A stretch of DNA of 64,000 nucleotides from Leptothrix ochracea. Lineage in GTDB: Bacteria; Pseudomonadota; Gammaproteobacteria; Burkholderiales; Burkholderiaceae_C. Shown in pieces: positions 9,150 to 62,757 of the stretch; the stretch's first letter is position 1, and every line of letters begins with the position of its first letter. The DNA is taken from positions 19,529-83,528 of the forward strand of contig NZ_JBFPHB010000013.1 of assembly GCF_041083635.1 (NCBI RefSeq), read 5' to 3'. Below the pieces are notes generated by a model that saw nothing but the letters and a program-made list of their open reading frames with translations, was not told the DNA's origin and did no database searches. The position numbers were made by a program, and so were the translations under genes.

Positions 9150-9167
9150 GCAATCTTTCTGGGGTGA

Positions 9168-10073: not shown

Positions 10074-10135
10074 GCGCTGGGGTCGCCATTCTAGGAATTC
10101 AACCCTTGCTCTGCACCACAGGGACTCTTCGGACC

Positions 10136-11683
10136 ATGCTCGCTACGCCATCTCATACGCTTGACGGTCGTCTTTATGCTGCGTTGGATCTCGGCTCCAA
10201 CAGCTTCCGACTTGAGATCAGCCGTCTACGCCAAGGCCGCTATCTGCGGCAGGACTACTTGAAAGAATCGGTGCGGCTTGGTGCAGGTCTGAGTCGTCAC
10301 GGACGGTTGAACGAAGACGCGATGCGGCGCGGCTTGGCCTGCCTGGCACGCTTTCGAGATCGTCTGGATGCCGTCCCTGAGGCCCAAGTTCGGGTGGTGG
10401 CCACCCAAACCTTGCGCGAGGCCGTGAATCGAGACAGTTTTGTTCATCGTGCTGAATTGGTCCTCGGGCATCCGATTGACCTGATTGGCGGGCGCGAAGA
10501 GGCCCGCTTGATCTACTTGGGCGTTTCGCGCCTTCAGCCCGCCAAGCGCACCCGACTGGTCATCGACATCGGGGGGCGCTCCACCGAATTGATTCTGGGT
10601 CGTGGCGCAGAGGCTACGGCCACCGAATCCTTTGGGGTCGGCTGCATCAGCTTGGCCCAGCGCCATTTCCCCGATGGACGCTATACCCCCGAAGCCTTCA
10701 GAGCCGCTCAAATCACCGCTGCGGCCTGCTTTGGCCCCGGACTTGGCACCTTCGGAGCCTCGCACTGGCAAGAAGCCTTGGGCTCTTCAGGCACGGTGGC
10801 CTCCATTGCCGACATTCTTTACGTCAACAAGATCACCGACGGCACCGTCACTCCAGCCGGTCTGCGCTGGTGCATCGAAGCCTGCCTCCAAGCAGGCCGA
10901 CTCGATCGACTCGATCTGCCGGGGCTTGAACCGGGTCACCGCGCTGTGCTGGCCAGCGGCTTGGCGATCCTGTACACCTTGGCGATCCATCTGGACATTC
11001 AGTCCCTCTTGCCAGCCCGGGGAGCCCTGCGTCAAGGCGTGGTGTTCGACCTTGATGACCGGCTCAATGCTCAGCACATTCTGCCTGGTCGCCCCTCACC
11101 CACCGACTTGCGCGACCTCACGGTTCAAACCCTGCAAACCCGGTTTCAAGTCGATGGGCGTCAAGCACGCCGGGTCCATGCCGTGGCCTTGATGTTGTTC
11201 GATCAGGCGTGGCCCTGTGCCCCGCGCGAAGCTCGCCAACAACTCGGTTGGGCAGCCGCGCTCCACGAAACGGGACGCTTGGTGTCACACCATGAGCCGC
11301 ACCGCCATGGCGCCTACTTGGTGGAACACGCCGATGCACCAGGCTTTTCGTACAACGAGCAACAACGCATCGCAGCCCTGATTGGCACGCATCAGGGTCC
11401 TCTACCGAGCGAACATGGCACGCCCTGGGATGACACCCAGATTCATCAAATGTTGTGCCTACGCTTGGCCACGTTGATCTGCCATGGTCGAGATCAGGGA
11501 CTCTCCCAAGGCACGACGCTCCATGTGGACCGACAGCAGGTACGCATCCATCTTCCTGAAGGTGGCACCAGCCTTCATCTGCGCACCACCCACTTGCTTG
11601 GCGAGGAGATCTATCTCTGGCAACGAGCACCCCATTTGCGTCTGATGCTGAGCAGCCGGACGTCACCCGGCTTTCTGCGCTGA
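10136..11683 (+). CDS. ppx: Ppx/GppA family exopolyphosphatase
   Basis: DLGSNSFRL, GREEARL, DIGGRSTE, C-terminal HD-like LHETG. Confidence 0.85.
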   Translation: MLATPSHTLDGRLYAALDLGSNSFRLEISRLRQGRYLRQDYLKESVRLGAGLSRHGRLNEDAMRRGLACLARFRDRLDAVPEAQVRVVATQTLREAVNRDSFVHRAELVLGHPIDLIGGREEARLIYLGVSRLQPAKRTRLVIDIGGRSTELILGRGAEATATESFGVGCISLAQRHFPDGRYTPEAFRAAQITAAACFGPGLGTFGASHWQEALGSSGTVASIADILYVNKITDGTVTPAGLRWCIEACLQAGRLDRLDLPGLEPGHRAVLASGLAILYTLAIHLDIQSLLPARGALRQGVVFDLDDRLNAQHILPGRPSPTDLRDLTVQTLQTRFQVDGRQARRVHAVALMLFDQAWPCAPREARQQLGWAAALHETGRLVSHHEPHRHGAYLVEHADAPGFSYNEQQRIAALIGTHQGPLPSEHGTPWDDTQIHQMLCLRLATLICHGRDQGLSQGTTLHVDRQQVRIHLPEGGTSLHLRTTHLLGEEIYLWQRAPHLRLMLSSRTSPGFLR

Positions 11684-48194: not shown

Positions 48195-48224
48195 TCGGGT
48201 TTTCCAACCTTGTTCTTTCTGCCC

Positions 48225-50567
48225 ATGATGCCCATCCGCTCGACACGCTGGATCGGGTTGATGGTGCTGGGTGCCACGCTGACTGCGGCACTGGCATTGA
48301 TCTTCCTGCTGACCATCGCCACTCAGAATCTAGCCCGTTACGAACGCCACTTCGACTGGCTCCTCACGATCAATATCAGCGTGGCCGCCATCCTTGGTGT
48401 GGCGGTTGTCATCACGGGGGTACGTCTGATAAGGCGGGTACGCAAGGGGCAATTCGGCAGCCGCCTGCTGCTGAAGCTGGCCGCCACCTTCGCCTTGGTG
48501 GGTGCGGTTCCAGGCACCCTGATTTATCTAGTGTCCTATCAGTTCGTCTCCCGCAGCATCGAGAGCTGGTTTGACGTCGAGATTGAACAGGCCTTGGAGT
48601 CTGGACTCAGCCTTGGCCGCACCAGCTTGCAGGTTCTCAGCAGTGGCTTGGCCAACAAAACACGCCTAGCCACCGATCGCTTGGCCGAGATGCCGGCATC
48701 GCAGCAAGTGATTTCCTTGGAGCGCATACGAGAACAACTGGGGGCCGACGACGTGATGCTTTTGTCGGACAACGGTCAGGTTTTGGCCTCCGCCCATGGG
48801 TCGCTCGAACATCACGTCACCCCTCCACGCCCCACGCCCAGCCAGATGCGCCAAGCCCAGTCGCTACGCGTCCAAACCAGTGTGGAGGGGCTGGAGGAAC
48901 ACGACCCCGACAATGCAACAGGCCTCCAACCCGCGCCAGTGCGTGCACGCATTCAAGCCTTGGCATGGATTGCGTCGAGCACCTTTGCTCTGGACGACAG
49001 CCATGAACGCTATTTGCAAGTGACGCAGCAAATTCCGGTGGAACTGGCGACCAATGCCCTGGCGGTAGCCTCCGCCTACAAGGAATATCAGCAGCGCATG
49101 CTGGGGCGGATGGGGCTGCGCAAGATGTACATCGGCACCCTGACGCTCACCCTGATCTTGGCGCTGTTTTGTGCCTTGCTGATGGCCGCTGCCTTGGGCC
49201 AACAACTGGCGCGACCCTTGCTGCTCTTGGCCGAGGGCGTCAACCAAGTGGCCCAAGGTGACCTACGCCCCAAGGCCGTCTTTGCTTCACGTGATGAGCT
49301 TGGCGGTCTGACACGTTCGTTCGCGCTCATGACGGAACAACTCGATGATGCACGCACGCAGCTTCACACCAGCCTGACTGAACTGGAAAGCGCTCGCACG
49401 CATTTGCAAACCATTCTCGACAATCTCACAGCAGGTGTGATCGTCTTCGATCTGGAAGGACACATCGATACAGTCAACCCGGGTGCCTTGCGTATCCTGC
49501 GCGCTCCAACGGGATCAACGTGGCGCGGGCAACGGCTCGACCACATCCCCGGACTCGCCGGACTCGCCCATGCCATCGAACACCATTTCACCGCCCACGC
49601 CCACACTCATGACCCTGACAGCACCGACCCCGATCACTGGCAGGACTCGCTGGAGCTTCAATCTCAAGCCGAGCACGATGTGCTGACGCTGCTTGTTCGC
49701 GGCGCTTCCTTGCCCAGCAAAACTCGGCTGATCGTTTTCGATGACATCAGCGACGTCGTCTCGGCCCAACGCAGCGTGGCATGGGCCGAAGTGGCCCGCC
49801 GTCTGGCCCACGAAATCAAGAATCCCCTGACCCCCATTCAACTGTCGGCGGAGCGCATTCAGCACAAGCTGGAAAACCGCCTTGAAGGCACGGATCGACA
49901 GTTGCTGGTGAAGTCAGTTGCCACCATCGTGGCGCAAGTCCAGTCCATGAAACAACTGGTCAACGAGTTCCGCGACTACTCCCGCCTGCCCTCCGCCAAT
50001 CTGACCCCCCTCGACTTGAATGCGTTGGTGGCAGAAGTCTTGGGGCTGTACGGCAACGCCCTCGAAACGGGCTTGCTGCGCGCAGAAACCACCCCGGATC
50101 TACCCACCATCCAAGGCGACACCACCCAACTTCGTCAAGTCATCCATAACTTGGTGCAAAACGCCTTGGACGCCGTGGCCCAACGGAACGAGGGCCGTGT
50201 CATGGTTCGCACGGAGATCGTCAACGATGAGCATGGCGCAGTTCGATCGGTGCGACTCAAGGTCATCGACAACGGCCCAGGCTTCACCGACAAGGTGCTC
50301 AAACGCGCTTTTGAGCCTTACGTCACCACAAAACCCAAGGGCACGGGACTCGGTCTGGCGGTGGTCAAGAAAATCGCCGAAGAACATGGGGCACGTGTAA
50401 GAATTCAAAATCTTGGTGACGAGATAGGTACTTTTGGTGGCGAATTCACGGGAAATGGCGCCCAAGTTTCGATAACATTTGTTCGTTCGGTCCTCGGTGC
50501 ACCTGCTTCGAAAGAGACCTCGCCTCCTAACCCTGCAACCATGATTACCGGCCCACGGGCTTCCTGA
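48225..50567 (+). CDS. NtrY-family sensor histidine kinase (PlrS/EsaS-like)
   Basis: TM helices, SIESWFD, HAMP, PAS, RRLAHEIKNPLTPIQLSAE, GTGLGL. Confidence 0.9.
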   Translation: MMPIRSTRWIGLMVLGATLTAALALIFLLTIATQNLARYERHFDWLLTINISVAAILGVAVVITGVRLIRRVRKGQFGSRLLLKLAATFALVGAVPGTLIYLVSYQFVSRSIESWFDVEIEQALESGLSLGRTSLQVLSSGLANKTRLATDRLAEMPASQQVISLERIREQLGADDVMLLSDNGQVLASAHGSLEHHVTPPRPTPSQMRQAQSLRVQTSVEGLEEHDPDNATGLQPAPVRARIQALAWIASSTFALDDSHERYLQVTQQIPVELATNALAVASAYKEYQQRMLGRMGLRKMYIGTLTLTLILALFCALLMAAALGQQLARPLLLLAEGVNQVAQGDLRPKAVFASRDELGGLTRSFALMTEQLDDARTQLHTSLTELESARTHLQTILDNLTAGVIVFDLEGHIDTVNPGALRILRAPTGSTWRGQRLDHIPGLAGLAHAIEHHFTAHAHTHDPDSTDPDHWQDSLELQSQAEHDVLTLLVRGASLPSKTRLIVFDDISDVVSAQRSVAWAEVARRLAHEIKNPLTPIQLSAERIQHKLENRLEGTDRQLLVKSVATIVAQVQSMKQLVNEFRDYSRLPSANLTPLDLNALVAEVLGLYGNALETGLLRAETTPDLPTIQGDTTQLRQVIHNLVQNALDAVAQRNEGRVMVRTEIVNDEHGAVRSVRLKVIDNGPGFTDKVLKRAFEPYVTTKPKGTGLGLAVVKKIAEEHGARVRIQNLGDEIGTFGGEFTGNGAQVSITFVRSVLGAPASKETSPPNPATMITGPRAS

Positions 50568-50572
50568 AATCC

Positions 50573-51415
50573 ATGGCCACTATTCTTGTCGTCGATGATG
50601 AACTGGGCATCCGTGCCCTGCTGTACGAAATCCTCACGGACGAGGGGCATGCCGTAGAGCTGGCTGAGAACGCCGCCCAAGCGCGCACGATCCGGGAGCT
50701 CAAACGGCCTGACTTGGTGCTGCTCGACATCTGGATGCCCGATGTCGATGGCATCACACTTCTCAAGGAATGGGGCGCGGGTCCCTCGCCGCTCAACATG
50801 CCCGTGATCATGATGTCAGGACACGGCACGATCGATACAGCGGTCGAAGCCACCAAATATGGTGCGATTGCTTTTCTTGAAAAGCCCATCACGCTGCAAA
50901 AACTCTTGCGGGCCGTCGAGCACAGCTTGGCCAAAGCCAGCCAGAAAGCCGCTGTACCGTCACCCGCTGCGTCGAGCGTGACAACCCCAACGGCGGCCGG
51001 ATCCAGTGGTTCCGCAACGCCCAACTATTCGACCCCCTTCCACGCAGCCGAACGGGCCACAGGCCTCGGCGGGGCTGAAGGGACAAGCCACGCCGCAACC
51101 TCACCCCAGCCTATGCCCGCCCTCTCCGGCGCAGGGAACATCCATGCGGCGGCGCAACTGGAAAGCTTGAATGAAGCCATCCCCTTAGCCGTAAGCAGCA
51201 CAGGCCCGGCCTACGAACAGCGCTTCGTGCTCAACAAGCCCCTGCGTGAGGCCCGTGATGCCTTTGAAAAGGCCTATTTCGAATTTCACTTGGCCACCGA
51301 AAACGGCAGCATGACCCGCGTTGCCGAGCGCACCGGCCTAGAGCGCACGCATCTTTATCGCAAGCTCAAGCAGCTCGGGGTGGACCTCTCCCGCAGTCGC
51401 CGGAGTGGTCACTGA
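50573..51415 (+). CDS. NtrX-like response regulator lacking the AAA+ domain (PlrR/EsaR-like)
   Basis: REC domain (DIWMPD), low-complexity linker, Fis HTH ERTHLYRKLK. Confidence 0.88.
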   Translation: MATILVVDDELGIRALLYEILTDEGHAVELAENAAQARTIRELKRPDLVLLDIWMPDVDGITLLKEWGAGPSPLNMPVIMMSGHGTIDTAVEATKYGAIAFLEKPITLQKLLRAVEHSLAKASQKAAVPSPAASSVTTPTAAGSSGSATPNYSTPFHAAERATGLGGAEGTSHAATSPQPMPALSGAGNIHAAAQLESLNEAIPLAVSSTGPAYEQRFVLNKPLREARDAFEKAYFEFHLATENGSMTRVAERTGLERTHLYRKLKQLGVDLSRSRRSGH

Positions 51416-51487: not shown

Positions 51488-51563
51488 GGCCAAGTAGCTC
51501 AGTCGGTAGAGCAGCGGATTGAAAATCCGCGTGTCGGTGGTTCGATTCCGCCCTTGGCCACCA
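51488..51563 (+). tRNA. tRNA-Phe (GAA)
   Basis: 76 nt GGCCAAG..CTTGGCCACCA, anticodon loop TTGAAAA, T-loop GTTCGATT, encoded CCA. Confidence 0.97.
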
Positions 51564-51570
51564 AAATCAA

Positions 51571-51604
51571 GCAAAACGCCAATCCTCCGGGGTTGGCGTT
51601 TTGC
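51571..51604 (+). terminator. Intrinsic terminator after tRNA-Phe
   Basis: GCAAAACGCCAA..TTGGCGTTTTGC hairpin followed by T-rich sequence. Confidence 0.8.
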
Positions 51605-51639
51605 TTTGTGCAAAGCCATGGAGTTCTTCGAACCGAGCC

Positions 51640-52056
51640 ATGAGATCCTCGATTCACATCGTCGATGTTGATCGACTGGAAACTTGGACCCGCTATCGGC
51701 AGGGTCTGTGCGACAGCTGCGCGGCCAACTGCTGCACCATGCCGGTCGAGATCCGGCTCGCTGACCTCGTGCGCTTGGGGCTGGTCGATCCCTTTGAAGC
51801 TGAACACGAAGAACCTCGCCTCATCGCTAGGCGTCTGGTCAAGTCTCGACAGGTCGAGCGCTACAACCACAAAGATGGCCTCTTCACCATGGCCCGGCGC
51901 GCCAACGGCGATTGCCAGTTTCTTGACGCCCAAACCCGCCGTTGCACGGTCTACGAGCAGCGCCCCAACACGTGCCGCAAGCATCCTCAGGTGGGACCCA
52001 AGCCGGGGTACTGCCCTTACGGCGCCCGAGTCAAGTCGCTGACACCTTCCGCGTAA
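51640..52056 (+). CDS. YkgJ-family cysteine cluster (CxxCxxxCC) protein
   Basis: LCDSCAANCC, DCQFL, RCTVYEQRPNTCR. Confidence 0.85.
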   Translation: MRSSIHIVDVDRLETWTRYRQGLCDSCAANCCTMPVEIRLADLVRLGLVDPFEAEHEEPRLIARRLVKSRQVERYNHKDGLFTMARRANGDCQFLDAQTRRCTVYEQRPNTCRKHPQVGPKPGYCPYGARVKSLTPSA

Positions 52057-52676
52057 AGTTGAATCGAGAGGCTTCGATCGGCATCGAATTCAAAGTGCAG
52101 GCGAGATGGAAGCAGTCCGAGGTGATGTGCCTGCACGGCAAGCGCCAAGAGTTGCTCAATTTGAGGGCGGACCGTCTCATCGGGTCGCGGATCACAAACA
52201 AGGTCATCAGCCGCTGACGGCTGGATGCAATCGATGCGATAAGGCAGGCTTATCGCCAGATCTCGGTGGCTTTGGGCGAGTTGCTGACCCAAGGCTTGGA
52301 CCCGTGCTACGCGCTGCTGCGCCTCCACATACGCCCGGTAAGCAAGCTCACCGGACATGCCCATGCCGGTGAGGTGCGACGGCGGCCGAAACACGGCGAC
52401 CGGCACAACATCTTCTGCACGCAAGATCACAGGCGCTGAGGCCACCGGAGGGGGTACAGGAACAACGGGCCCCGCACGAGTCCGCCGCCCCCTCATCCGC
52501 GGACGTGGTGGCAGGGGAGCCGGCATCCGTACAGCACGCACGACCCTCGTTTTAAACACACCATGCCTCAAAGACACCGAGGGAGAAGAGGTGAAAAAGG
52601 GCTGATGCATCAGCATGGCAGCATGCAGCGCCACGCTGATCAGCCCGGCAAAGACGACGCAGCGTACTTGCAGCAC
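52017..52676 (-). CDS. Hypothetical membrane-anchored Pro-rich protein (TonB/TolA-like architecture)
   Basis: GTG start with GAGGA SD; TM with SVALH (S-x3-H); Pro/Arg-rich linker; globular tail with 2 Cys. Confidence 0.55.
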   Translation of the reverse strand: MLQVRCVVFAGLISVALHAAMLMHQPFFTSSPSVSLRHGVFKTRVVRAVRMPAPLPPRPRMRGRRTRAGPVVPVPPPVASAPVILRAEDVVPVAVFRPPSHLTGMGMSGELAYRAYVEAQQRVARVQALGQQLAQSHRDLAISLPYRIDCIQPSAADDLVCDPRPDETVRPQIEQLLALAVQAHHLGLLPSRLHFEFDADRSLSIQLYAEGVSDLTRAP

Positions 52677-52691
52677 GCGGTCCTCACGGAC

Positions 52692-54989
52692 TCACTGAAT
52701 CACACCATGGATGACGCCAAAGCCACCGCTGACACTGGGCTGAGAGCCGATGTAGAAGGGATCGGCGGCACTGCTTGGGTCATGCAGGCTGGCGGCTGAG
52801 GGCAACGTCTGCGGGTTCAACGCCAGCCCGGCACAAGCACTCGGCGTGGTCTTGCCCAGACGAACTTCCGCGTTCAGTGCCTTCACGATCAGCGGCGTGC
52901 TGGCAGCACCCGCCATGCCCGGCAAAGTCATCGTGGCGCCGTCCGTCAACGCAAAGACCGGCACAAAACGCACGTTGCCGCCATCACAGGGGGCCGGCTG
53001 GTTATCCACCGGATTCACACAACTCCCGGGAATGCCAAACAGGTTGCCAAAACCGTTGAACTGCAACTGAATGGTTTTGCCCACCCAAACCCCGGTGGGG
53101 TCATCCGTGGCACTGATTGGGTACTGGATGTTGCGTGGCGGGTCGAAACTCATCACTTGGGCATTGCTGGTGCGCGTCAGCCATGTGGATTGATTCCACG
53201 ACTGCACACCCGTTTCCCACGTGTAGTACGTGGCGGGTGCTTGCGGTTCACAAACCGTTGCCGACATACCCATGTAGGGCGGTGTGCATGACGTCAGCGG
53301 TGCGGTGAACAACCGACCCGTCATCACGCCCCCCATGTATTGGGACGAGAAGTGACTGGGGTTGGTGTCCGTCACCGGAGCCCCCGACTCTTTCAGACCC
53401 GAGCCGTCAAAGGTGTAATGCACCGACTGCGCACCGTACATCCACTGCTGCCCGGTACCGCTGCCAAAAGGCCCATTCATGCCGGTGAACGCAGCCAGCG
53501 AGGCAGCCGTGGGGCAATTGCTCATGCAGTAAAAATCGGTGGGGGCACCGGCACTGCCAGGCAACACTACGTTTTGGGTGTAGTACGTCACCGCATCCGT
53601 CCCCACATGGGCCACGCCGGTCGAAGGCACGTTCACATTGCCACCCACCGCATCCGACCACCCCGAAAGCGGCATACCCGCCAAGGCAGCCGCGCCGATC
53701 TTGGCAGCTGGAGTGACCGAGGCCACCACACACCCCGTGGGGTTGCAACTCTGCTTGCCCGTCACATAAACCGCCGCAGTGGTTTTGTCCCAATGGGCCT
53801 GCCATGTGTTGAAGCCTGTGACCGACGGGTTATCCGTCAGGCTGGCTTGCGGGTTCGTGGGATCACTCAGGTTGCCCCAGAAAAACATCGGGATACCGTC
53901 CACCGCATCCAGCGTGGTGCTGCCTTGACTCCACTGTGTCAGCTTACCGCTGACCTTGGAGAGGCTGTAGACGTTGGTGTTGTTGGGGCGCTGATCGGTG
54001 ATGGTGTAGCCGTTGACCAAGCCGTCGGGCAAAGCCCCCAGATCCACCCCTTGGAGGTTGAGTCCCCAGTAGCCGGCATAACCGTAGACCTTGCTGCCGT
54101 CAGCCGTCTTGGTCGCCACGATCGGAAAGCCTGGATGGACCGTATCGACCCGCGCACCCGTGACAGCGTCGTACGTGCCGTAGCTCCATACGGATTTGTT
54201 CGCCTGAGCGATGGAACGGTTGAAACACACATCGTTGGCGGTGTCGCTGCGCCGAAAGAGCGCACTGTCATAGGCGAAATCAAAACTTGTGCCATTGACC
54301 GCCATGGTCCCAGCACCCGACGTGGTGGACGCCGCCGCCATGGTCAAACCGTTAACCCGCAAAGGATTGCCCGGCTCGGTGTTGCGCTCGAAGTAACTGA
54401 TGGCCCCGGCGGACGAGTCGATAAAGCCATTGAACATTTGCAGCCCACCCGACTGACCCGCGTAGTCGAGGCGAAACACCCCATACGGCGGCACATCGGT
54501 CGGCGACTGGCTGGCCGCAACACGCACATCCACCGTCACGGGCATGCCGTTGCCGTTGTTGAAGCTCAACCAAACCTTGGCGATCATCGGCGCGCTGTTG
54601 CTGGCCCGAGAAACGTTGACCACCGCATTCATATAGGACGGCGTGGCCTCGGCTGCCGAAGACGTTGCCGTGGAGTTGCTGGCGTTGGCACGCTTGGACG
54701 AGTCGCACTTGTTCTGATCCACCAAAGCGCTGTAGAGCACACTCACACTGCCATCGGCAGCAGCAGTGCCCTTTTGGTCCAGCATCTCGGCTGGGCGCAT
54801 CGCGTTCATGATGCAAAGCACCATGTTGAGCTGATTGACCCCATCCGAGGTGGCGTCTTGGACATAGACGTTTTGGGGATCGGTGTAGTACGGCGAGGCG
54901 GTATCGGCAGGTGCCGCCATCAAGGGCGAGGCCAGCCCCAACAAAGCCACCGCAGACGCCACACGGGTAAGACGCAGCTTCATGATCAT
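52692..54989 (-). CDS. Large secreted Cys-rich hypothetical protein (765 aa)
   Basis: Sec signal MIMKLRLTRVASAVALLGLASPLMA; 12 Cys; beta-strand-rich T/S/G/N composition. Confidence 0.85.
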   Translation of the reverse strand: MIMKLRLTRVASAVALLGLASPLMAAPADTASPYYTDPQNVYVQDATSDGVNQLNMVLCIMNAMRPAEMLDQKGTAAADGSVSVLYSALVDQNKCDSSKRANASNSTATSSAAEATPSYMNAVVNVSRASNSAPMIAKVWLSFNNGNGMPVTVDVRVAASQSPTDVPPYGVFRLDYAGQSGGLQMFNGFIDSSAGAISYFERNTEPGNPLRVNGLTMAAASTTSGAGTMAVNGTSFDFAYDSALFRRSDTANDVCFNRSIAQANKSVWSYGTYDAVTGARVDTVHPGFPIVATKTADGSKVYGYAGYWGLNLQGVDLGALPDGLVNGYTITDQRPNNTNVYSLSKVSGKLTQWSQGSTTLDAVDGIPMFFWGNLSDPTNPQASLTDNPSVTGFNTWQAHWDKTTAAVYVTGKQSCNPTGCVVASVTPAAKIGAAALAGMPLSGWSDAVGGNVNVPSTGVAHVGTDAVTYYTQNVVLPGSAGAPTDFYCMSNCPTAASLAAFTGMNGPFGSGTGQQWMYGAQSVHYTFDGSGLKESGAPVTDTNPSHFSSQYMGGVMTGRLFTAPLTSCTPPYMGMSATVCEPQAPATYYTWETGVQSWNQSTWLTRTSNAQVMSFDPPRNIQYPISATDDPTGVWVGKTIQLQFNGFGNLFGIPGSCVNPVDNQPAPCDGGNVRFVPVFALTDGATMTLPGMAGAASTPLIVKALNAEVRLGKTTPSACAGLALNPQTLPSAASLHDPSSAADPFYIGSQPSVSGGFGVIHGVIQ

Positions 54990-54995
54990 GCCCCT

Positions 54996-55169
54996 TCAGT
55001 GGGTGGTGGCTGTCACCACCGAGACACTGCCCGGCATGCCCACACCTTTGACGGTGCTGGTGTTCGTCGTCCCGCCTCCAGAGGAAGAACCACCCGAAGA
55101 CCCGCCGCCACAAGCTGCAAGCCACGGCAACCCCATCGCCAAAACCCAAACGATCAGCAATTTGTTCAT
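54996..55169 (-). CDS. 57-aa lipoprotein with Gly/Ser tether
   Basis: GAAGGAG SD, lipobox LAA-C20, GGGSSGGSSSGGG linker, C-terminal GVGMPGSVSVVTA. Confidence 0.85.
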   Translation of the reverse strand: MNKLLIVWVLAMGLPWLAACGGGSSGGSSSGGGTTNTSTVKGVGMPGSVSVVTATTH

Positions 55170-55436
55170 GGTGACTCCTTCAGAAAACGTCAAGGCCACA
55201 CTCACGGTCCCTTGTAGCAGCCTTGGCCTTTTTCAACGGAGTATCCGAGCCGACTTAGACTTGCATCAACAAGGCCCCGACATGGGACTTTTCAAGCCAC
55301 CACGGAAAGCGCACGCTTAACAGTTTTGGGGCCACTTTCACCCGCCTGTCCATGCACCACATCGAAAACGGGTCGATATCCTCCCTCATGAATCGCCTGG
55401 CCAGTCATGTCGACTTTCAACACGGACCCCACATGC

Positions 55437-56810
55437 TCAATCGGGCTTGCCTTCTAGGGTTTTCAAACGCCGATACAAGGTCCGCTCACTGACGCCTAAA
55501 CGCTGGGCCAGTTCGGCACGGCTACCGCGATGCGCCAAGACTTCAGCGCGCAAAAGATCGCGGCTGAGATCGTGCAAGGAGCGTGGCGGGACGGCTGCTT
55601 CGGCGGGTGGCACGGTGCTGGGCGAAGCGGGTGGGGGGCTCACCGCTTCACGGGCAGCGCGACTGAACTCAGGTGTCAGGGCTTCTTCAACGTGGTGCGG
55701 CTCCAGCACCGGACCATCACAGAGCAAGCTGGCGCGCTCAAGCAAGTTGCGCAATTCGCGCACATTGCCGGGAAAATCATAGGCCGACAGCAGTTCGAGC
55801 GTGGCGGGAGCCAGCGTCACCGGCCCATCGCGCCGCAGGCGTGCCAGCAATGCGGGGACCAGCAGGGCCAGATCCTCACGACGTTCACGCAGCGGCGGCA
55901 AGTGGATCGGAAAGGTACTGAGCCGGAAATAGAGATCGGAGCGAAACAGATTCTGCGAAGCCATGTCGCGCAGATCACGATGCGTGGCGGAGATGACCCG
56001 AATATCGGCGTGACGCCACTCCGTCGAACCAACCCGGCGGTACGTGCCGGATTCAAGCAAGCGCAGCAACTTGACCTGCATCGGCAACGGAATCTCGCCG
56101 ACTTCGTCGAGAAACAGCGTGCCCCCGCTCGCTGATTCCACCAGACCTTGCTTTTGATGGGTGGCCCCGGTGAAGGAGCCTCGCTCGTGACCGAAAAGCT
56201 CGCTCTCAAACAAATGTTCGGGCAAGCTGGTGCAGTCCAGCACCACCAGCGGCTTGTGTGCCCGGCGGCTGGCGGCATGCACCGCACGCGCCACCAATTC
56301 TTTGCCCGTGCCCGACTCCCCTTGGAGCAACACCGTGGCCTCGCTCGGGGCCACGCGGGCCACCTTTTGCAACATGCGCTGGAAAGCCGGGGCACGCCCC
56401 ACCAGCTCCCATCCAGCTGCCGCTGCGGTCGCTGACGACACGGTGCGCACGGCTTCCATTTTTTCGACAAAGTACGCCATCTCGCCTTCGGCATTGCGCA
56501 AGGGCAACAACTCAATGTTGACGTAGGCCTCGCCCTTGGGCGTGTGGTGCAAATGCAAGACGCGCTCACGCTGTCCCGAACTACGGGCCTTGGCCAAAGG
56601 GCAACATTCACCCGCTTGATCGCAGGGCACGCTGAAGTGGTGCGAAACCTCGTAGCACGTCCGGCCCACCACACTGCCTTCGGGACTGAACTGCTTGCGA
56701 TACGCCGCGTTGGCCGCAAGGATGCGGTACTGGCGATCAAACAAGATATGCGGCTCGGCGAGCCCTTCTAGGTATGACACCAACTCGGGCAACAACTTCA
56801 CGCCAGGCAT
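55437..56810 (-). CDS. FisR-type PAS / sigma54 AAA+ / Fis-HTH activator
   Basis: [40 protein letters not shown]; PAS Cys52/63/69/70. Confidence 0.9.
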
Positions 56811-56840
56811 CTGACACCTCTTTTCATGGGTCGCCGATTG

Positions 56841-56875
56841 TGTCAGAGCACTGCCATAACTGTCAGTGAGCGTCA
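56841..56875 (+). promoter_or_regulatory. Candidate activator enhancer (phased TGYCA repeats)
   Basis: TGTCA 56841, TGCCA 56852, TGTCA 56861, CGTCA 56871. Confidence 0.6.
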
Positions 56876-56993
56876 GTAAAGCCATCCCCTGGATGCAACA
56901 AATCGCCCCCCTCGGGGGGGCTCCTTGAGGCTTAAACGTGCATAAATGCCTCGACGAAGGGGCGACGCCCCACTTTTGGACCTCATACACGGC

Positions 56994-57008
56994 TGGCATG
57001 GTTCTTGG
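56994..57008 (+). promoter_or_regulatory. sigma54-like promoter of the cyd operon
   Basis: TGGCATG-GTTC-TTGG: good -24 box, correct spacing, -12 C replaced by G. Confidence 0.6.
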
Positions 57009-57040
57009 AATACATAGGGTATTCACGCAAAGCATCTGCC

Positions 57041-57190
57041 ATGTCACCCAACCTCTCGCACGACCCGCACCACGCCCCAAAGCCAGTGCGCCAACGCCTC
57101 AGCCTATCCCTGAGCAGCGAACTAACCCTGATCATCCTCATCAAGCTCGTCGCACTCTGGATGCTTTGGGCCCTGACAAGGAGTGCATGA
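57041..57190 (+). CDS. CydP-like small membrane protein (49 aa)
   Basis: Single TM ELTLIILIKLVALWMLW ending 1 nt before the cydA ATG. Confidence 0.65.
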   Translation: MSPNLSHDPHHAPKPVRQRLSLSLSSELTLIILIKLVALWMLWALTRSA

Positions 57191-57191
57191 C

Positions 57192-58739
57192 ATGTCTGAC
57201 CAACTTGTGGATGTGTCACGGCTGCAATTCGCCGTCACCGCGCTTTATCACTTCCTGTTTGTGCCCTTGACCATCGGCATGACATGGATGCTGGTCATCA
57301 TGGAAAGCGTTTACGTCATGACCGGCCAAGTGGTTTGGAAGGACATGACGCGCTTTTGGGGCAAGTTGTTCGGCATCAACTTCGCCTTGGGCGTGACCAC
57401 CGGCATCACGATGGAGTTTCAGTTCGGCACCAACTGGGCTTACTACTCGCACTATGTGGGTGATGTCTTCGGCGCACCGCTGGCCATCGAAGGGCTGATG
57501 GCCTTCTTCCTCGAATCGACTTTCATCGGTCTGTTTTTCTTCGGCTGGGACCGTCTCGCGCGCACCCAACATTTGTTGGTGACCATCCTGATGGCGCTGG
57601 GCACCAATCTGTCCGCGCTGTGGATTCTGATCGCCAATGGCTGGATGCAAAACCCGGTCGGGGCTGAGTTCAGCTGGCAGACCATGCGCATGGAAATGGT
57701 CGATTTCTGGGCCGTGCTCTTCAACCCGGATGCTCAAGCGAAGTTTGTGCACACCGTCTCGGCCGGCTACGTGACCGGTGCGATGTTCGTGCTCTCGATC
57801 TCGTCGTGGTACTTGCTCAAAGGCCAAGACGTGGCCTTTGCCCGACGCAGCTTCCGCGTGGCCTCCGCCTTCGGTCTGGCCTCGGTGTGCTCGGTGATCG
57901 TGCTGGGCGATGAGTCCGGCTACACCGTGGGCGAAGCCCAGCAAACCAAGATGGCCGCGATCGAAGCCATGTGGGACACCGAACCCGCGCCAGCAGCTTT
58001 CAACCTGATCGCTTGGCCCAACGAGGCCGAGATGAAAAACGACTGGGCGATCGAAATTCCGTGGGTGATGGGGCTGATCGGCACGCGCTCCATCCACAAG
58101 GAAATTCCTGGCATCAAAGAACTGATCGCCCGCAACCGCACCCGCATCGTCTCGGGCATCGAAGCCGTCAAGGCACTGGACACGCTGCGCCACGATCGCA
58201 GCCACCGAGAAGCGGAGTCCGTCCTCAAGCAGCATCAAGCCAATCTCGGCTTCGGTTTGCTGATGCGCAAATATGTCAAGTCGATGGCGGAGATCACCCC
58301 CGCGCTGATCGACCAAGCGGCCCGCGACACCATCCCCAAGGTCACACCGATGTTCTGGGGCTTCCGTGCCATGGTCGGTTTGGGCATGGGCATGCTGCTG
58401 CTTTTTGCGACCGCGTTCTGGTCCACGCTCAAGGTGCGCTGCGGTGAACAACGCTGGTTGCTGCGCTGGGCCCTGCTGATGCTGCCCGCCCCTTGGCTGG
58501 CGTGTGAGTTGGGCTGGTTTGTGGCGGAGTATGGCCGCCAACCGTGGACGATCTACGGCGTGCTGCCCACGCACCTTTCGGTGTCAAGCATCAGTGTCGA
58601 GAGCGTCTATCGCTCTTTGGCGGGCTTTGTCGCCTTCTACACGGTGCTGCTGATCATCGAAATGGGTTTGATGATTCGCTTTGCTCGCCTCGGTCCCGGC
58701 AGTCTCGGTACCGGCCGCTACGCCAACGAAACCCATTGA
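57192..58739 (+). CDS. cydA: Cytochrome bd ubiquinol oxidase subunit I (long Q-loop)
   Basis: YHFLFVP, EFQFGTNW, KFVHT, KMAAIE, FRAMVG, GWFVAEYGRQPW. Confidence 0.97.
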   Translation: MSDQLVDVSRLQFAVTALYHFLFVPLTIGMTWMLVIMESVYVMTGQVVWKDMTRFWGKLFGINFALGVTTGITMEFQFGTNWAYYSHYVGDVFGAPLAIEGLMAFFLESTFIGLFFFGWDRLARTQHLLVTILMALGTNLSALWILIANGWMQNPVGAEFSWQTMRMEMVDFWAVLFNPDAQAKFVHTVSAGYVTGAMFVLSISSWYLLKGQDVAFARRSFRVASAFGLASVCSVIVLGDESGYTVGEAQQTKMAAIEAMWDTEPAPAAFNLIAWPNEAEMKNDWAIEIPWVMGLIGTRSIHKEIPGIKELIARNRTRIVSGIEAVKALDTLRHDRSHREAESVLKQHQANLGFGLLMRKYVKSMAEITPALIDQAARDTIPKVTPMFWGFRAMVGLGMGMLLLFATAFWSTLKVRCGEQRWLLRWALLMLPAPWLACELGWFVAEYGRQPWTIYGVLPTHLSVSSISVESVYRSLAGFVAFYTVLLIIEMGLMIRFARLGPGSLGTGRYANETH

Positions 58740-58752
58740 AGAAAGAGTCACC

Positions 58753-59892
58753 ATGCTTTTCGATTACGAAACCCTCAAGGTGATCTGGTGGCTGCTGGTG
58801 GGCCTGCTGCTGGTCGGTTTTGCCATCATGGACGGCCACGATATGGGCGTGGGCGCGCTGCTGCCCTTTGTTGGCCAAGGCGACGAGGAACGTCGTGTGG
58901 TCATCAACACCGTCGGCCCGCACTGGGACGGCAACCAAGTCTGGTTCATCACCGCCGGTGGCGCGCTCTTTGCCGCTTGGCCGCTGGTCTACGCCACCGC
59001 TTTTTCTGGTTTTTACTGGGCCATGCTGTCGGTCCTGTGGGCGCTGTTTTTGCGCCCCGTCGGCTTCGACTACCGCAGCAAGATCCATCACCCGCTCTGG
59101 CGTCAAACCTGGGACTGGGGTCTGTTCATCGGCGGGATCGTGCCCCCGCTGGTGTTTGGCATCGCCTTCGGCAACTTGCTGCAAGGGGTGCCCTTTTATT
59201 TCGATGACTTGCTGGTGTCGCACTACACCGGCAGCTTTGCCGACATGCTCAACCCCTTTGCCCTGCTGAGCGGCGGGGTGGCCTCGGCCATGATCATCCA
59301 GCATGGCGGCGTGTATTTGGCCCACCGCACCGAAGGTGATGTGCAGCGCCGATCTATGCGTGCAGCAAGCGTGGCGGGTGTGCTCTGTCTGATTTTGTTC
59401 GCAGGGGCCGGTTTGTGGCTGGAACGGATCCCCGGCTATGTGATCACGTCGGTGGTGGATACCGCTGCCCTGCCCGATCCGCTGAATAAAACGGTGATCC
59501 AGGTCGATGGGGCTTGGTTGAGCAACTTCCTGCACTGGCCGTGGCTGTGGCTGCTGCCCACCTTGACGTTTGCCGGCACAGGCCTTGCCATCGTGCTCGG
59601 CCAAGGGGGCCGCACAGGGTGGGCTTTTGTGGCCTCGTCGCTGTCCATGGCCGGCATCATCGGCACGGCCGGGGCCGCAATGTTCCCCTTTGTCATGCCC
59701 TCATCCACGCATCCGAACGCCAGCTTGACGGCGTGGGACAGTGTTTCCAGCCCGCTCACCCTCAGCATCATGCTGGTGGCCGCGGCTATTTTTATCCCGC
59801 TCATCGTCGTCTACACCAGTTGGGCGTATCGGGTGATGCGGGGCAAGGTCACGGTGGACCATATCCGCCGCAACGCTCACAGCGCCTATTGA
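58753..59892 (+). CDS. cydB: Cytochrome bd oxidase subunit II
   Basis: IMDGHDMG, GPHWDGNQVW, LRPVGFDYRSK, YTSWAY. Confidence 0.97.
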   Translation: MLFDYETLKVIWWLLVGLLLVGFAIMDGHDMGVGALLPFVGQGDEERRVVINTVGPHWDGNQVWFITAGGALFAAWPLVYATAFSGFYWAMLSVLWALFLRPVGFDYRSKIHHPLWRQTWDWGLFIGGIVPPLVFGIAFGNLLQGVPFYFDDLLVSHYTGSFADMLNPFALLSGGVASAMIIQHGGVYLAHRTEGDVQRRSMRAASVAGVLCLILFAGAGLWLERIPGYVITSVVDTAALPDPLNKTVIQVDGAWLSNFLHWPWLWLLPTLTFAGTGLAIVLGQGGRTGWAFVASSLSMAGIIGTAGAAMFPFVMPSSTHPNASLTAWDSVSSPLTLSIMLVAAAIFIPLIVVYTSWAYRVMRGKVTVDHIRRNAHSAY

Positions 59893-59917
59893 TTTATGGG
59901 GATACGGAGGGACTCTT

Positions 59918-59962
59918 ATGCAAAACACCCCTACGGTTTACGTTGATATCGACAAGCTTTGA
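59918..59962 (+). CDS. Possible 14-aa small ORF MQNTPTVYVDIDKL
   Basis: GGAGG 7 nt upstream of ATG in the 90-bp cydB-cydX gap. Confidence 0.35.
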   Translation: MQNTPTVYVDIDKL

Positions 59963-59982
59963 CGGTTCAAGAGGAGATTTTC

Positions 59983-60129
59983 ATGTGGTATTTCACCTGG
60001 ATACTGGGCGTCGGCTTTGCCGTCTTGCTGGCCATTCTCAACGCCATGTGGGGCGAACACGCACTGGCACGGAGCGAGAGTCATCGTCCCGATCCAGCAT
60101 CCGCTGACACGGACGGATCACACCCTTGA
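59983..60129 (+). CDS. cydX: Cytochrome bd small subunit CydX (48 aa)
   Basis: MWYFTWILG..AILNAMWGE; GAGGAG SD; too short for the ORF track. Confidence 0.93.
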   Translation: MWYFTWILGVGFAVLLAILNAMWGEHALARSESHRPDPASADTDGSHP

Positions 60130-60362
60130 ATCTGCTGGTCCTTGGGGGTGCGTGTGCCATCGCGCTGGTGGTCACGATTTACCCCCCTATGCTTGTGCAA
60201 AGCGACGGCCACGTGGATCATGTGCGCCTCGCTTTACTGATGTTGGCCATGAGCACCGGTTTTATCCGGGGCGTCGGCTATATCCCGAGCCACCGCTTCT
60301 GGCGGTGGCTTTTTTCGACACCGACTGCTTTGGCATGGCTGTTGCTGGCAGTCTGGTGGTGA
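60126..60362 (+). CDS. ybgE: cyd operon YbgE-family membrane protein
   Basis: GFIRGVGYIP..FWRWLFS; TTG start overlaps cydX stop. Confidence 0.8.
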   Translation: MNLLVLGGACAIALVVTIYPPMLVQSDGHVDHVRLALLMLAMSTGFIRGVGYIPSHRFWRWLFSTPTALAWLLLAVWW

Positions 60363-60396
60363 TTCCTTGACGGGCCTTGCCCTGAACATCCACACC

Positions 60397-61035
60397 ATGC
60401 CTGACGTCTACTTTCGCCAACTCTATGACGCTCATCACGGGGCCCTGACCTATGTCTTGGGCGAGACCGAACAAGGTGAGGCCATCGTGATTGATCCCTT
60501 GGCGCAGGACAGCGTGCTGCTCGGCGCCATGTTGCAGGAACAAGGTTTGCGTCTGCGCTGGGTCCTGCACACGCATTTGCACCACGGCTCAGAACGCCAA
60601 GGCCTCAAGGCAGGTCATGTCTACAGCCGACAAATCACCCGAGGCCTTCCGACAGCCCACATCCCCAAAGAAACCCGGCTGGTCGATCACAACGAGCTGA
60701 TTGCTTTTGGTCAAGAGCGCCTGCGTGTCATTGCGACACCCGGTCACACACCCAGTTCCATCAGTTTTCTGTGGCGGGACCGCTTGTTTTGTGGGGACGC
60801 GCTGCACTTGGGCGGCTGCCCACCATGCAATGATCCCAGCAGCGATGCTGGGGCCATGTATGACAGCGTGACCACACACCTGCTCACGCTGCCCGGTGAA
60901 ACGCTGGTGTTTCCAGGACACGATCTGGCGGGCCGTAGCGTCTCCACCATCGCCGAGGAGCGTCGCCGCAACAAAGCCTTTTCAGGCCAGTCGCGGGACG
61001 CCTTCATGAGCCTCAGTCCAGCATTTCCGGCTTAG
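60397..61035 (+). CDS. ETHE1-type persulfide dioxygenase-like MBL protein with degenerate motifs
   Basis: FRQLYD, IDPL, TPGHT, FCGDAL, FPGHD, STIAEE; HxHxDH reads HLHHGS. Confidence 0.8.
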   Translation: MPDVYFRQLYDAHHGALTYVLGETEQGEAIVIDPLAQDSVLLGAMLQEQGLRLRWVLHTHLHHGSERQGLKAGHVYSRQITRGLPTAHIPKETRLVDHNELIAFGQERLRVIATPGHTPSSISFLWRDRLFCGDALHLGGCPPCNDPSSDAGAMYDSVTTHLLTLPGETLVFPGHDLAGRSVSTIAEERRRNKAFSGQSRDAFMSLSPAFPA

Positions 61036-62680
61036 CCATCCACTCACGGCCCTTGAGCATCGCCTCCCAATACAAGGGCGGCATGATCCGTTCCTTGAGC
61101 CACCAAGCCAGCCGTGAGGGGCGAGTGCCGTCGAGCAACCAACTCGGGAAGCTCGGGGCAACCTTGCCACCATAGGTGAACTCAGCCAACACGATCTTGC
61201 CGCGCTCAACGGTCAACGGGCAAGAGCCGTAGCCATCGTAGCTTGCCGAAACTTTGCGACCCTCACGGTCAGCAAGCAGGTTCTCAGCCACGACCGGAGC
61301 TTGCTTACGCGCCGCCGCCGCCGTCTTGGCGTTGGGCGTTGAGCTCACGTCGCCGAGCGCAAAGATGTTGTTGTAACGACGATGACGCAGCGTGGTTTGA
61401 TCCACCTCCACCCAGCCCGCAGCATCGGCCAAGGGACTGACGCGGATGAAGTCTGGGGCCTGCTGTGGCGGGCAGACGTGAATCATGTCGAAGCTGCGCT
61501 CCACCGTGTCCTTGGTGCCATCCGCCTTGGTGCGGGTGAACACCGCTTTACGACCCGGGCCGTCAATGGCGGTCAGGTTGTGCGTGAAGTTGAGGTCCAC
61601 GTTGTAGCGCTTGATGTATTCCATCAAGGCCGGTACGTAGTCGGCCACGCCGAACAACGCTGGCCCAGCGGTCATGAAGGAGATGTTGATGTCCTTCAAA
61701 CGGCCCTGACGCAGCCAGTGGTCACCGGAGAGATACATCGCCTTTTGCGGTGCACCCGCGCACTTGATCGGCATGGTCGGCTGGGTGAACAGCGCCTTGC
61801 CCGATTTCAACTCCTGCACCAACTTCCACGTGTAGGGCGCCAAGTCATAGCGATAGTTGGAGGTCACACCATTGCGACCCAACGTATCGATCAGCCCCTC
61901 GATGCCGTTCCAGTTCAGCTTGATCCCTGGGCAGACCACGAGATGCTTGTATTTGACGATCCGGCAGCCATCCAAAATCAAGGCATCTTGCTCAGGCTCG
62001 AACGCCGCCACCGCAGCCTTGATCCAATGCACGCCCCGGGGCAAAACCGCGCCCATCTGACGAACAGTTTGTTCTGCGGTGAACACGCCGCCACCCACCA
62101 AGGTCCAACCCGGCTGGTAGTAATGAACATCGGCCGGATCAATCACGGCGATATCCAAATGACGATCGCGCGCCAGCAAGCTCGCCGCCACAGCCGCCCC
62201 CGCAGCACCGCCCCCCACGATCACAATGTCGTGACGGGCATCAGCCACATCCACCGGCGTCTTGCCACCGTTGGCGATCCGGCGCACCACGCCATGCATC
62301 TTGAAACCAGCTTGACTGGAGCGTTCCAAAATTTCTGGCAAAGGCGTCCTGCCGGCTTGCGACAAGGCCCACAGCGTGACAGTACGGGTACCCGTGCGGC
62401 AATAACCGAGCGTGGGCTTGGGCAAGGAGTCGAAGACCTTGCCAAATTCGACGGCATTCTCATCGCTGACCTTGCCGGACTCCACCGGCAGGTACACGGC
62501 CACCATGCCCAGAGCTTCGGCAGCGCGACTGATTTCCTTGAACAGCGGCTGATCCCCAGCTTCCCCGTCAGGACGATTGCAAACCACCGAGCGAAAGCCC
62601 AGCTTGTTCAGTTCAGCAAGGTCAGCCGGCTGGATTTGCGCGGTGACTGATAGCTCAGGCGTAAGGGCCCGGATTTCCAT
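61013..62680 (-). CDS. sqr: DUF442 (rhodanese-like) fused to type II sulfide:quinone oxidoreductase
   Basis: C34 (VCNRPDGE), C94 (YCRTGTR); GGGAAG, HYYQPGWTLVGGG, KCAGAPQK, YGSCPL. Confidence 0.93.
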   Translation of the reverse strand: MEIRALTPELSVTAQIQPADLAELNKLGFRSVVCNRPDGEAGDQPLFKEISRAAEALGMVAVYLPVESGKVSDENAVEFGKVFDSLPKPTLGYCRTGTRTVTLWALSQAGRTPLPEILERSSQAGFKMHGVVRRIANGGKTPVDVADARHDIVIVGGGAAGAAVAASLLARDRHLDIAVIDPADVHYYQPGWTLVGGGVFTAEQTVRQMGAVLPRGVHWIKAAVAAFEPEQDALILDGCRIVKYKHLVVCPGIKLNWNGIEGLIDTLGRNGVTSNYRYDLAPYTWKLVQELKSGKALFTQPTMPIKCAGAPQKAMYLSGDHWLRQGRLKDINISFMTAGPALFGVADYVPALMEYIKRYNVDLNFTHNLTAIDGPGRKAVFTRTKADGTKDTVERSFDMIHVCPPQQAPDFIRVSPLADAAGWVEVDQTTLRHRRYNNIFALGDVSSTPNAKTAAAARKQAPVVAENLLADREGRKVSASYDGYGSCPLTVERGKIVLAEFTYGGKVAPSFPSWLLDGTRPSRLAWWLKERIMPPLYWEAMLKGREWMAKPEMLD

Positions 62681-62757
62681 GACTGATTTCCCTAAAGAAG
62701 AGTGGAGACGCAAGAGAGTGACGGGGTTGAAGCTAGATGACAACCTTCTGATCTAGC

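Follow-up and report, generated by a model that had tools for sequence, protein, structure and literature searches.

In chaperone-usher pili, donor-strand complementation lets one chain give a single β strand to the fold of another chain. The Tol-Pal system brings together a lipoprotein of the outer membrane, a β-rich partner in the periplasm and an inner-membrane protein that carries an S-x3-H helix as well as a long extended linker; its partners recognize one another by β-strand augmentation, as the N-terminus of TolB does with domain III of TolA. The mini-lipoprotein LptM assists the oxidative maturation of a large envelope protein, LptD. In LpoA/LpoB, TbpB and fHbp, a lipobox precedes a long disordered Gly/Ser/Pro-rich tether, which keeps a folded domain at a distance from the membrane. 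Here we analyze a three-gene locus that is like each of these systems in part. It lies in a 64,000-nucleotide stretch of the Leptothrix ochracea genome (contig NZ_JBFPHB010000013.1), hereafter the window, and encodes a mini-lipoprotein, a 765-residue exported protein and a Pro-rich membrane protein.

We propose, with a probability of roughly 0.6, that this locus encodes a two-piece ('split') outer-membrane lipoprotein together with a lineage-specific accessory gene. The mini-lipoprotein is the detached lipid anchor, tether and one conserved strand of the large protein, and most likely it re-docks onto that protein in the periplasm. The closest concepts are donor-strand complementation and the binding of a large partner by a mini-lipoprotein such as LptM. 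The proposed mechanism differs from the pilus case in that the donor would be a lipid-anchored peptide of about 33 residues and its purpose would be membrane tethering, not polymerization. It differs from LpoA/LpoB, TbpB and fHbp in that those are single chains with known folds and partners; here anchor and domain are separate genes and the fold is unmatched.

An earlier note, made from the sequence alone, had drawn attention to the locus as a candidate new envelope system with three co-oriented genes. Reading the open reading frames (ORFs) and the sequence bears out that layout: three ORFs of 57, 765 and 219 amino acids lie on the minus strand, separated by gaps of 6 and then 15 bp, each with its own Shine-Dalgarno-like site. 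The site of the large ORF, GAAGGGG, overlaps the lipoprotein stop codon, and GAGGA stands 4 nt 5' of the GTG that opens the third ORF. The features are as follows.

54996..55169, minus strand: mini-lipoprotein gene, 57 aa, ATG start at 55169, stop ending at 54996 (ORF, Shine-Dalgarno site and lipobox read from the sequence).
55175..55180, minus strand: Shine-Dalgarno-like AAGGAG, 5 nt 5' of the lipoprotein ATG (read from the sequence).
55008..55049, minus strand: conserved strand peptide, codons 41-54 of the mini-lipoprotein, KGVGMPGSVSVVTA (consensus of split copies and fused homologues).
52692..54989, minus strand: gene for the large exported protein, 765 aa, with a predicted Sec signal peptide, 12 Cys and a β-rich body (ORF, homologues, AlphaFold).
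52017..52676, minus strand: third gene, 219 aa, GTG start at 52676, stop ending at 52017 (ORF, 14-member alignment).
52596..52661, minus strand: predicted membrane helix of the third protein with the S-x3-H motif, codons 6-27 (alignment, hhalign).

How are the first two genes related? We compared 78 loci from species-representative genomes, almost all of them metagenome-assembled genomes (MAGs). Their gammaproteobacterial part includes Burkholderiales, Gallionellaceae, Sideroxydans, Steroidobacteraceae and Chromatiaceae; the other part covers Nitrospirota, Thermodesulfovibrionia, Desulfuromonadaceae, Oryzomonas, SAR324 and Planctomycetota. The 5' end is intact in 71 loci, and in 69 of these the strand module accompanies the body: as a separate gene in 50, in degenerate or frameshifted form in 2, and fused in frame in 17. 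The module was not detected in the other 2 of the 71. Nearly every proteobacterial locus has a mini-lipoprotein homologue directly 5' of the large gene. The non-proteobacterial loci, from Nitrospirota through to Planctomycetota, have no separate gene; there lipobox, Gly/Ser tether and strand all stand at the start of the large ORF itself.

The order of elements in the fused chain is lipobox, Gly/Ser tether, the strand KVSVV[D/E]A, a linker of about 25 residues and a disulfide-rich body of about 700 residues. One example, P0121 (783 aa; locus L054, 5800-8151), runs ...LAAC-G8S4-GAATALTVAEQVSIVDAQ...ALKIGKLYLAPSDIPANSDYYND... The split point falls exactly after the strand, and the fused linker (ALKIGKLYLAPSD) sits where the split proteins have the h and c regions of their signal peptide (ALLGLASPLMAAPAD). 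In Proteobacteria, the window included, the lipoprotein retains anchor, tether and strand, and where the fused chain has its linker the body has a Sec signal peptide of its own. Fused members make up a large family in their own right. Because fusion recurs in 17 loci and in more than 100 database proteins, an origin of the fused homologues in assembly or gene-calling artefacts is unlikely. This Rosetta-stone pattern of fusion and splitting makes genes 1 and 2 two halves of one protein. From these sequence comparisons we conclude that the mini-lipoprotein and the large protein are a real functional unit, and that the pair came from, or gave rise to, a single lipoprotein.

To which half does the strand belong structurally? 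Some members carry additional N-terminal InlB B-repeat or BACON domains, at times without a lipobox. In these the extra domains come first and the strand follows them, about 25-35 residues ahead of the body, so that KVSVV[D/E]A stands just before the body in fused and Ig-extended members alike. Its place near the body, behind the extra domains, makes the strand a structural part of the body rather than of the membrane-proximal region. AlphaFold's model of the fused P0121, whose mean predicted local distance difference test (pLDDT) score is 82.9, gives the block 41-50, most of the strand segment, a pLDDT of 82; both flanking linkers fall below 50. We read this model as placing the strand against the body.

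The mini-lipoprotein of the window reads MNKLLIVWVLAMGLPWLAAC/GGGSSGGSSSGGGTTNTSTVKGVGMPGSVSVVTATTH. As the earlier note had proposed, it looks like an outer-membrane-type lipoprotein made of a tether and one strand. Its predicted signal peptide ends in a lipobox, L-A-A-C20 (...WLAAC20GGG), with Gly at position +2. After Cys20 come a 28-residue low-complexity Gly/Ser/Thr tether and a single β-prone segment, SVSVVTA, near the C-terminus. We compared 51 split copies, the window's and those of 50 other loci. All 51 have the lipobox-equivalent Cys followed by G, S, T or N, as do the fused homologues. The mature peptide is 28-58 residues long (median 33), and 19-50 residues (median 25) separate the lipidated Cys from the strand. 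Position +2 is held by G in 41 copies, by S in 8, and by T and N in one copy each. Asp at +2 is the inner-membrane retention signal of proteobacterial lipoproteins; because it never occurs here, putative sorting by Lol would be to the outer membrane. The C-terminal consensus is T-G-V-A-T-P-x-S-V-S-V-V-T-A-[N/K]-COOH; one of its Val residues is present in 51/51 copies and the chain ends one residue past the motif in 47/51. The window's copy ends ...VVTATTH, three residues (TTH) beyond the near-universal ...VVTA[N/K]-COOH, and metatranscriptome contigs from run X19 carry three substitutions at the stop codon and intergenic spacer (54990, 54995, 54997). One MAG, MFD02416.bin.1.7, has two paralogues of the large gene (L004 and L072); the mini-lipoprotein upstream of the second appears degenerate or frameshifted, yet it ends in VTAN.

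Are these small genes real? The large protein has hundreds of homologues, the mini-ORF is kept in 50 other loci and transcript contigs cover the operon, so the genes are more than chance ORFs. The view that the mini-ORF or the third ORF is spurious was rejected on this conservation and transcript evidence. Contigs from three iron-mat metatranscriptomes tile the operon and cross both gene junctions: single contigs such as 54414-55179 and 54592-55490 cross from the lipoprotein gene into the large gene, and one contig, 52500-53627, crosses from the large gene into the third. At 32-38, the assembler depth of the large gene in run X20 exceeds that of the neighboring regulator and cydA (13.8). Leptothrix ochracea expresses the operon in situ, in its iron mats. 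The exact mini-lipoprotein sequence is present in NCBI/UniRef, and the best database match of the large protein is a 99% identical L. ochracea MAG protein.

Could the mini-lipoprotein instead act only transiently, in the maturation or assembly of the large protein, by analogy with LptM, leaving the mature large protein soluble in the periplasm? Such a role would fit the tight coupling of the two genes, a large partner with up to six disulfides to form, and a weak NCBIfam match to LptM; LptM, too, is a very small lipoprotein that acts on a large disulfide-containing envelope protein. The mini-lipoprotein matches no Pfam or NCBIfam family at threshold, and the LptM match is far below its own (12.4 bits versus a cut-off of 27.7). 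That match covers only residues 1-21, the signal peptide and lipobox, whereas what is conserved here is the C-terminal strand and not the anchor-proximal region; nor is the partner an outer-membrane barrel. In other phyla, moreover, strand and anchor are permanently part of the polypeptide, which speaks for a stable structural role. We regard a transient factor as very unlikely.

The large protein itself was described by the earlier note as exported, β-rich and Cys-rich, and sequence and model agree. A predicted Sec-type signal peptide occupies about residues 1-25 and ends ...SPLMA/AP; the NCBI start, two codons later, gives a protein of 763 aa. The 12 Cys are residues 59, 95, 255, 415, 420, 488, 492, 568, 580, 657, 668 and 719, and since their number is even, all could pair. 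An AlphaFold model built on a 52-sequence alignment has a pLDDT of 81.7 and a predicted template-modeling score of 0.73; DSSP finds about 45 strands and few helices in it. The model begins with a short N-terminal helical hairpin, in which C59 and C95 are invariant, and continues through a disordered Ser/Thr-rich loop to antiparallel strands of 8-13 residues (about 119-475) and a loop-rich, disulfide-stapled C-terminal region.

Profile and structure searches with this protein, which the earlier note had called for, led to no characterized family. Full-length homologues number in the hundreds, all unnamed. A profile search of 1.84 billion cluster representatives found 1,124 at E≤1e-3 and 506 at E≤1e-30, so that clustering at 50% identity gives the family at least 1,124 clusters. 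The protein reaches the threshold of no model in Pfam-A 2025 or NCBIfam 20.0, Pfam finds no recurrent family in 108 members of the body family (52 + 56), and PDB sequence and profile searches with the large protein and the body alignments gave no match. Foldseek returned no match at E≤0.001 in the PDB (two independent confident models) or in BFVD (one model), with top template-modeling (TM) scores of about 0.1 or less; its recurrent matches to ApoB100, VDAC, TbpB, amine-oxidase and carbohydrate-active-enzyme supersandwich domains are non-significant and were not used. A reading as an outer-membrane barrel was rejected: the protein is disulfide-rich, ends in Gln and has no barrel match.

Gly, Pro, Trp, Tyr, Phe and Cys make up most of the residues that are invariant across both clades. 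Those of polar character are D37, N55, N71, D91, R128, R247, R258, R280, K703 and Q765, the last residue of an invariant C-terminal end, ...G-V-[VI]-Q; no His or Glu is invariant. Conservation is strongest in two stretches, YYTW[QE]TGxNxWNQ and NGFGNLxGIPGxC. Since no His or Glu is invariant, no Cys is left unpaired and the invariant residues are mostly Gly, Pro, aromatics and Cys with a few Arg, Asp, Asn and Lys, we have weak evidence that the body serves in binding or as a scaffold, perhaps for a glycan or some other polymer of the envelope, and is not an obvious enzyme. Two homologues depart from the common form. P0340 (1459 aa) has a big insertion of Cys-rich tandem repeats (C-x-N/D-K-x-T-S-x-C-x-D-P...) in the body, near the hairpin that bears C415 and C420 in Proteobacteria; the loop in this region therefore tolerates large additions. 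P0334 (987 aa) starts with a type-II membrane anchor, contains an extensin-like region rich in SPPP, lacks the terminal Gln and has a eukaryotic, alga-like look, which suggests horizontal transfer out of bacteria.

In the mechanism that we propose, Sec would export both products. The body would be oxidized in the periplasm, forming up to six disulfides; the lipoprotein would be acylated and then passed by Lol to the outer membrane. There the C-terminal strand of the lipoprotein would dock non-covalently onto the body in the manner of donor-strand complementation, and a flexible leash of 19-50 residues, roughly 60-160 Å, would suspend the body beneath the outer membrane, on its inner face. In some Betaproteobacteria the inner-membrane-anchored third protein, with its TonB/TolA-type helix and Pro-rich spacer, may contact the tethered complex.

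Does the body face the periplasm or the cell exterior? If the lipoprotein were flipped to the outer leaflet, the body would lie outside the cell and act there as an adhesin, as a binding protein for nutrients or polymers, or as a glycan-active enzyme. The long flexible tether fits such a surface complex, as do the BACON, InlB-B-repeat or CarboxypepD_reg-like spacer domains of some homologues; the numerous invariant aromatics, Arg, Asp and Asn are compatible with glycan binding, and the very weak Foldseek matches include carbohydrate-active-enzyme supersandwich domains. The genomic context in Nitrospirota points the same way: in 6 loci the fused lipoprotein is followed by a secreted HExxH metalloprotease of the MXAN_6640 family with a CFI-box-CTERM sorting domain, sometimes with a 200-aa lipoprotein between them. 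Such loci include L054 (8224-10888), L052, L056 and L066; L057 has an S8 subtilase at 8596-10956 instead. The adjoining proteases could reflect a functional link to secreted proteases or only synteny within the lineage. Against a surface complex, every fold match is non-significant and the body has no conserved catalytic signature. The split pieces would also have to cross the outer membrane singly or as a complex, and no export machinery is conserved nearby. We consider surface display unlikely and favor a predicted periplasmic location for the body, since assembly in trans is simple there and display of two chains needs machinery that is not conserved near the locus.

Several points weigh against a split lipoprotein held together in the periplasm. 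Docking of the strand in trans is inferred, and DSSP assigns the strand segment no β ladder in the fused P0121 model. Spacer domains such as BACON, found in some homologues, are typical of surface lipoproteins, and the neighboring secreted proteases hint at an extracellular role in Nitrospirota. The metatranscriptome contigs are without strand information and may include DNA.

The third gene stands apart from the first two. The earlier note had called its product an inner-membrane, Pro-rich, TonB/TolA-like protein. The first two terms agree with the sequence: the protein is predicted to be bitopic, with a membrane helix followed by a Pro-rich linker, and contains 23 Pro, 14 of them in residues 50-110. 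The helix bears S-x3-H as Ser14 and His18; His18 is invariant in 14 homologues and the Ser is present in most. The Pro/Arg-rich linker varies among homologues in length and composition, and it is followed by a C-terminal region of about 100 residues with two conserved Cys. Judged by eye, the pattern of this region (helix, hairpin, helix, strand or strands) is compatible with a TonB/TolA-like domain but is no evidence for one.

The likeness to TonB and TolA holds for the S-x3-H helix and the extended linker, and stops there. In hhalign the motif falls in register with S18/H22 of E. coli TolA (probability 14%) and with S16/H20 of TonB (6.5%), the two reference sequences having been entered by hand. 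Nothing aligns beyond the membrane helix; the TolA match covers TolA residues 9-30 only. Pfam gave no match to TonB_C (PF03544) at E≤1 in any of the 14 members and none to another family, the PDB profile search was empty and the window protein matches no NCBIfam model at threshold. No TonB or TolA homologue on which to base a TonB_C or TolA domain III profile was found among the ORFs collected here. The NCBI annotation of this gene in L. ochracea, P0389, starts internally and gives 142 aa, without the S-x3-H helix and most of the Pro-rich linker; we favor the 219-aa form with the GTG start because the upstream helix is conserved in homologues.

The earlier note also expected the three genes to occur together. 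That holds for genes 1 and 2, found together in the 69 of 71 loci described above, and fails for gene 3. A hidden Markov model (HMM) built from the 14 homologues matches the window and 13 of the 78 loci, all betaproteobacterial, with the gene 3' of the large gene in 12 of the 13 and 5' in one. All three genes are present in locus L029 of the cultivable Oxalobacteraceae bacterium GrIS 1.18. By this HMM the gene is absent within 6 kb in the other betaproteobacterial loci and in all gammaproteobacterial and non-proteobacterial ones. The third protein is thus probably a lineage-specific accessory that the core unit can dispense with. A new envelope unit stands for genes 1 and 2; a three-gene trans-envelope system is not supported as a general feature.

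Might the locus nonetheless encode an energy-coupled trans-envelope system? The third protein would then sit in an ExbBD- or TolQR-type motor through S-x3-H, its Pro-rich linker would span the periplasm and its C-terminal domain would grip the strand, with proton-motive force driving uptake, release or a conformational change. The register and conservation of S-x3-H and the Pro-rich linker speak for such a motor, as do the adjacency and apparent co-transcription of the third gene in the window. The VVTA motif that ends the lipoprotein also fits. The TonB box of E. coli BtuB is DTLVVTAN, and we take the resemblance of SVSVVTA[N] to it as a lead and not as a result. Set against this are the absence of the third gene from 65 of the 78 loci, many of them betaproteobacterial, and the failure of Pfam, the PDB profile search and hhalign, at its low probabilities, to detect TonB_C or TolA domain III. 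Clustering of the ORFs in the 78 loci found no exbBD or tolQR genes conserved nearby. Finally, the large protein is not a plug-and-barrel receptor, and in every architecture the strand lies beside the body, as a structural element would. We find such a motor quite unlikely. A combined reading, in which a novel-fold family is held by donor-strand complementation from a separate lipopeptide of about 33 residues and is also engaged in some Betaproteobacteria by a new transducer of the TonB/TolA class, seems to us decidedly improbable; if true, it would be an unrecognized energy-coupled trans-envelope system with its 'TonB box' on a lipoprotein instead of a barrel.

Nor can the locus be filed under the Tol-Pal or TonB systems, because the defining domains looked for (TonB_C, TolA domains II and III, Plug and barrel, propeller) are absent. 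Despite the general likeness to Tol-Pal, the proteins resemble Pal, TolB and TolA domains II and III neither in sequence nor in fold. The lipoprotein lacks an OmpA-like peptidoglycan-binding domain, the operon lacks tolQR, and the TolA-like gene is missing from most loci; the linker of that protein is Pro/Arg-rich, unlike the Ala/Lys-rich domain II of TolA. Foldseek matches of the large protein to WD40 or other propellers, such as that of TolB, are non-significant (E about 0.1-1, TM≤0.1), and its strands, at 8-19 residues, are longer than those of propeller blades. The third protein shares with TonB the S-x3-H membrane helix and Pro-rich spacer, without TonB_C. Unlike TonB-dependent transporters (TBDTs), the large protein has no Pfam match to Plug (PF07715) or barrel (PF00593), ends in an invariant Gln and not an aromatic residue, and contains 12 Cys; where Foldseek pairs it with TBDT or SusC chains, E is >0.4 and TM <0.1.

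The surroundings of the operon are as the earlier note described them, with a tRNA gene on one side and a sulfide island on the other.

51488-51563: tRNA-Phe.

A sulfide-handling neighborhood at 55437-62743 lies on the upstream side of the operon. It starts with a Cys-rich PAS / sigma-54 activator / HTH_8 regulator, which we take to be FisR-like, followed by cydAB and, beyond these, an MBL-fold gene (persulfide-dioxygenase-like) and an SQR-like fusion of a BLH-phosphatase-like domain with a pyridine-nucleotide-disulfide oxidoreductase. A sigma-54 promoter 5' of the operon would tie it to the adjacent activator, but no convincing one was found; the sole candidate has 4 mismatches, and no sigma-70 consensus was found there either. 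On the other side, an ORF with a CxxCxxCC (PF03692) zinc- or iron-chelating domain (51601-52056, plus strand) is convergent with the third gene, with a listed overlap of 40 bp (52017-52056). Just past the tRNA, at 48210-51415 on the plus strand, lie genes for an NtrY-like histidine kinase and an NtrX-like response regulator, whose depth in one metatranscriptome, about 150-190, is far above that of the operon. The GC content across the locus is nothing out of the ordinary, and tblastn against a plasmid collection gave no match. When all ORFs of the 78 loci were clustered, no conserved neighbors emerged besides the lipoprotein, the third gene (13 loci) and the Nitrospirota metalloprotease. With no other conserved neighbor, the two-part lipoprotein is a self-contained unit in unrelated genomic contexts.

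Why has such a unit escaped notice? In both source annotations that were inspected the mini-lipoprotein gene is uncalled (L001, 9649-9987; L002, 9782-9991), leaving an apparently empty gap of about 500 bp 5' of the large gene. Since this gene is missed and the helix of the third protein is cut off, automated annotation hides the architecture. A text-term search of the Leptothrix ochracea genome paper (PMC11412304) and a Sideroxydans paper found no mention tied to these genes. A full-text literature search on strand complementation and lipoprotein tethers, whose sole result was a review of the BAM complex, found no description of a detached strand-donating anchor for lipoproteins, and we know of no such arrangement.

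In agreement with the earlier note, none of the three proteins falls into a recognized domain or characterized family by Pfam, NCBIfam and PDB sequence searches. The body belongs to a large unannotated family that extends through Proteobacteria, Nitrospirota, Desulfuromonadaceae/Oryzomonas, SAR324 and Planctomycetota. Lacking both a structural analogue and a model in Pfam or NCBIfam, the family clearly merits structure determination and a new family model. Given a family without annotation or structural match, and an anchor split off in an unusual way, there is a modest chance that the locus represents something categorically new. The comparison of fused and split forms yields a directly testable mechanism, in which a detached lipid anchor, by donating a single strand, would tether a periplasmic protein to the outer membrane.

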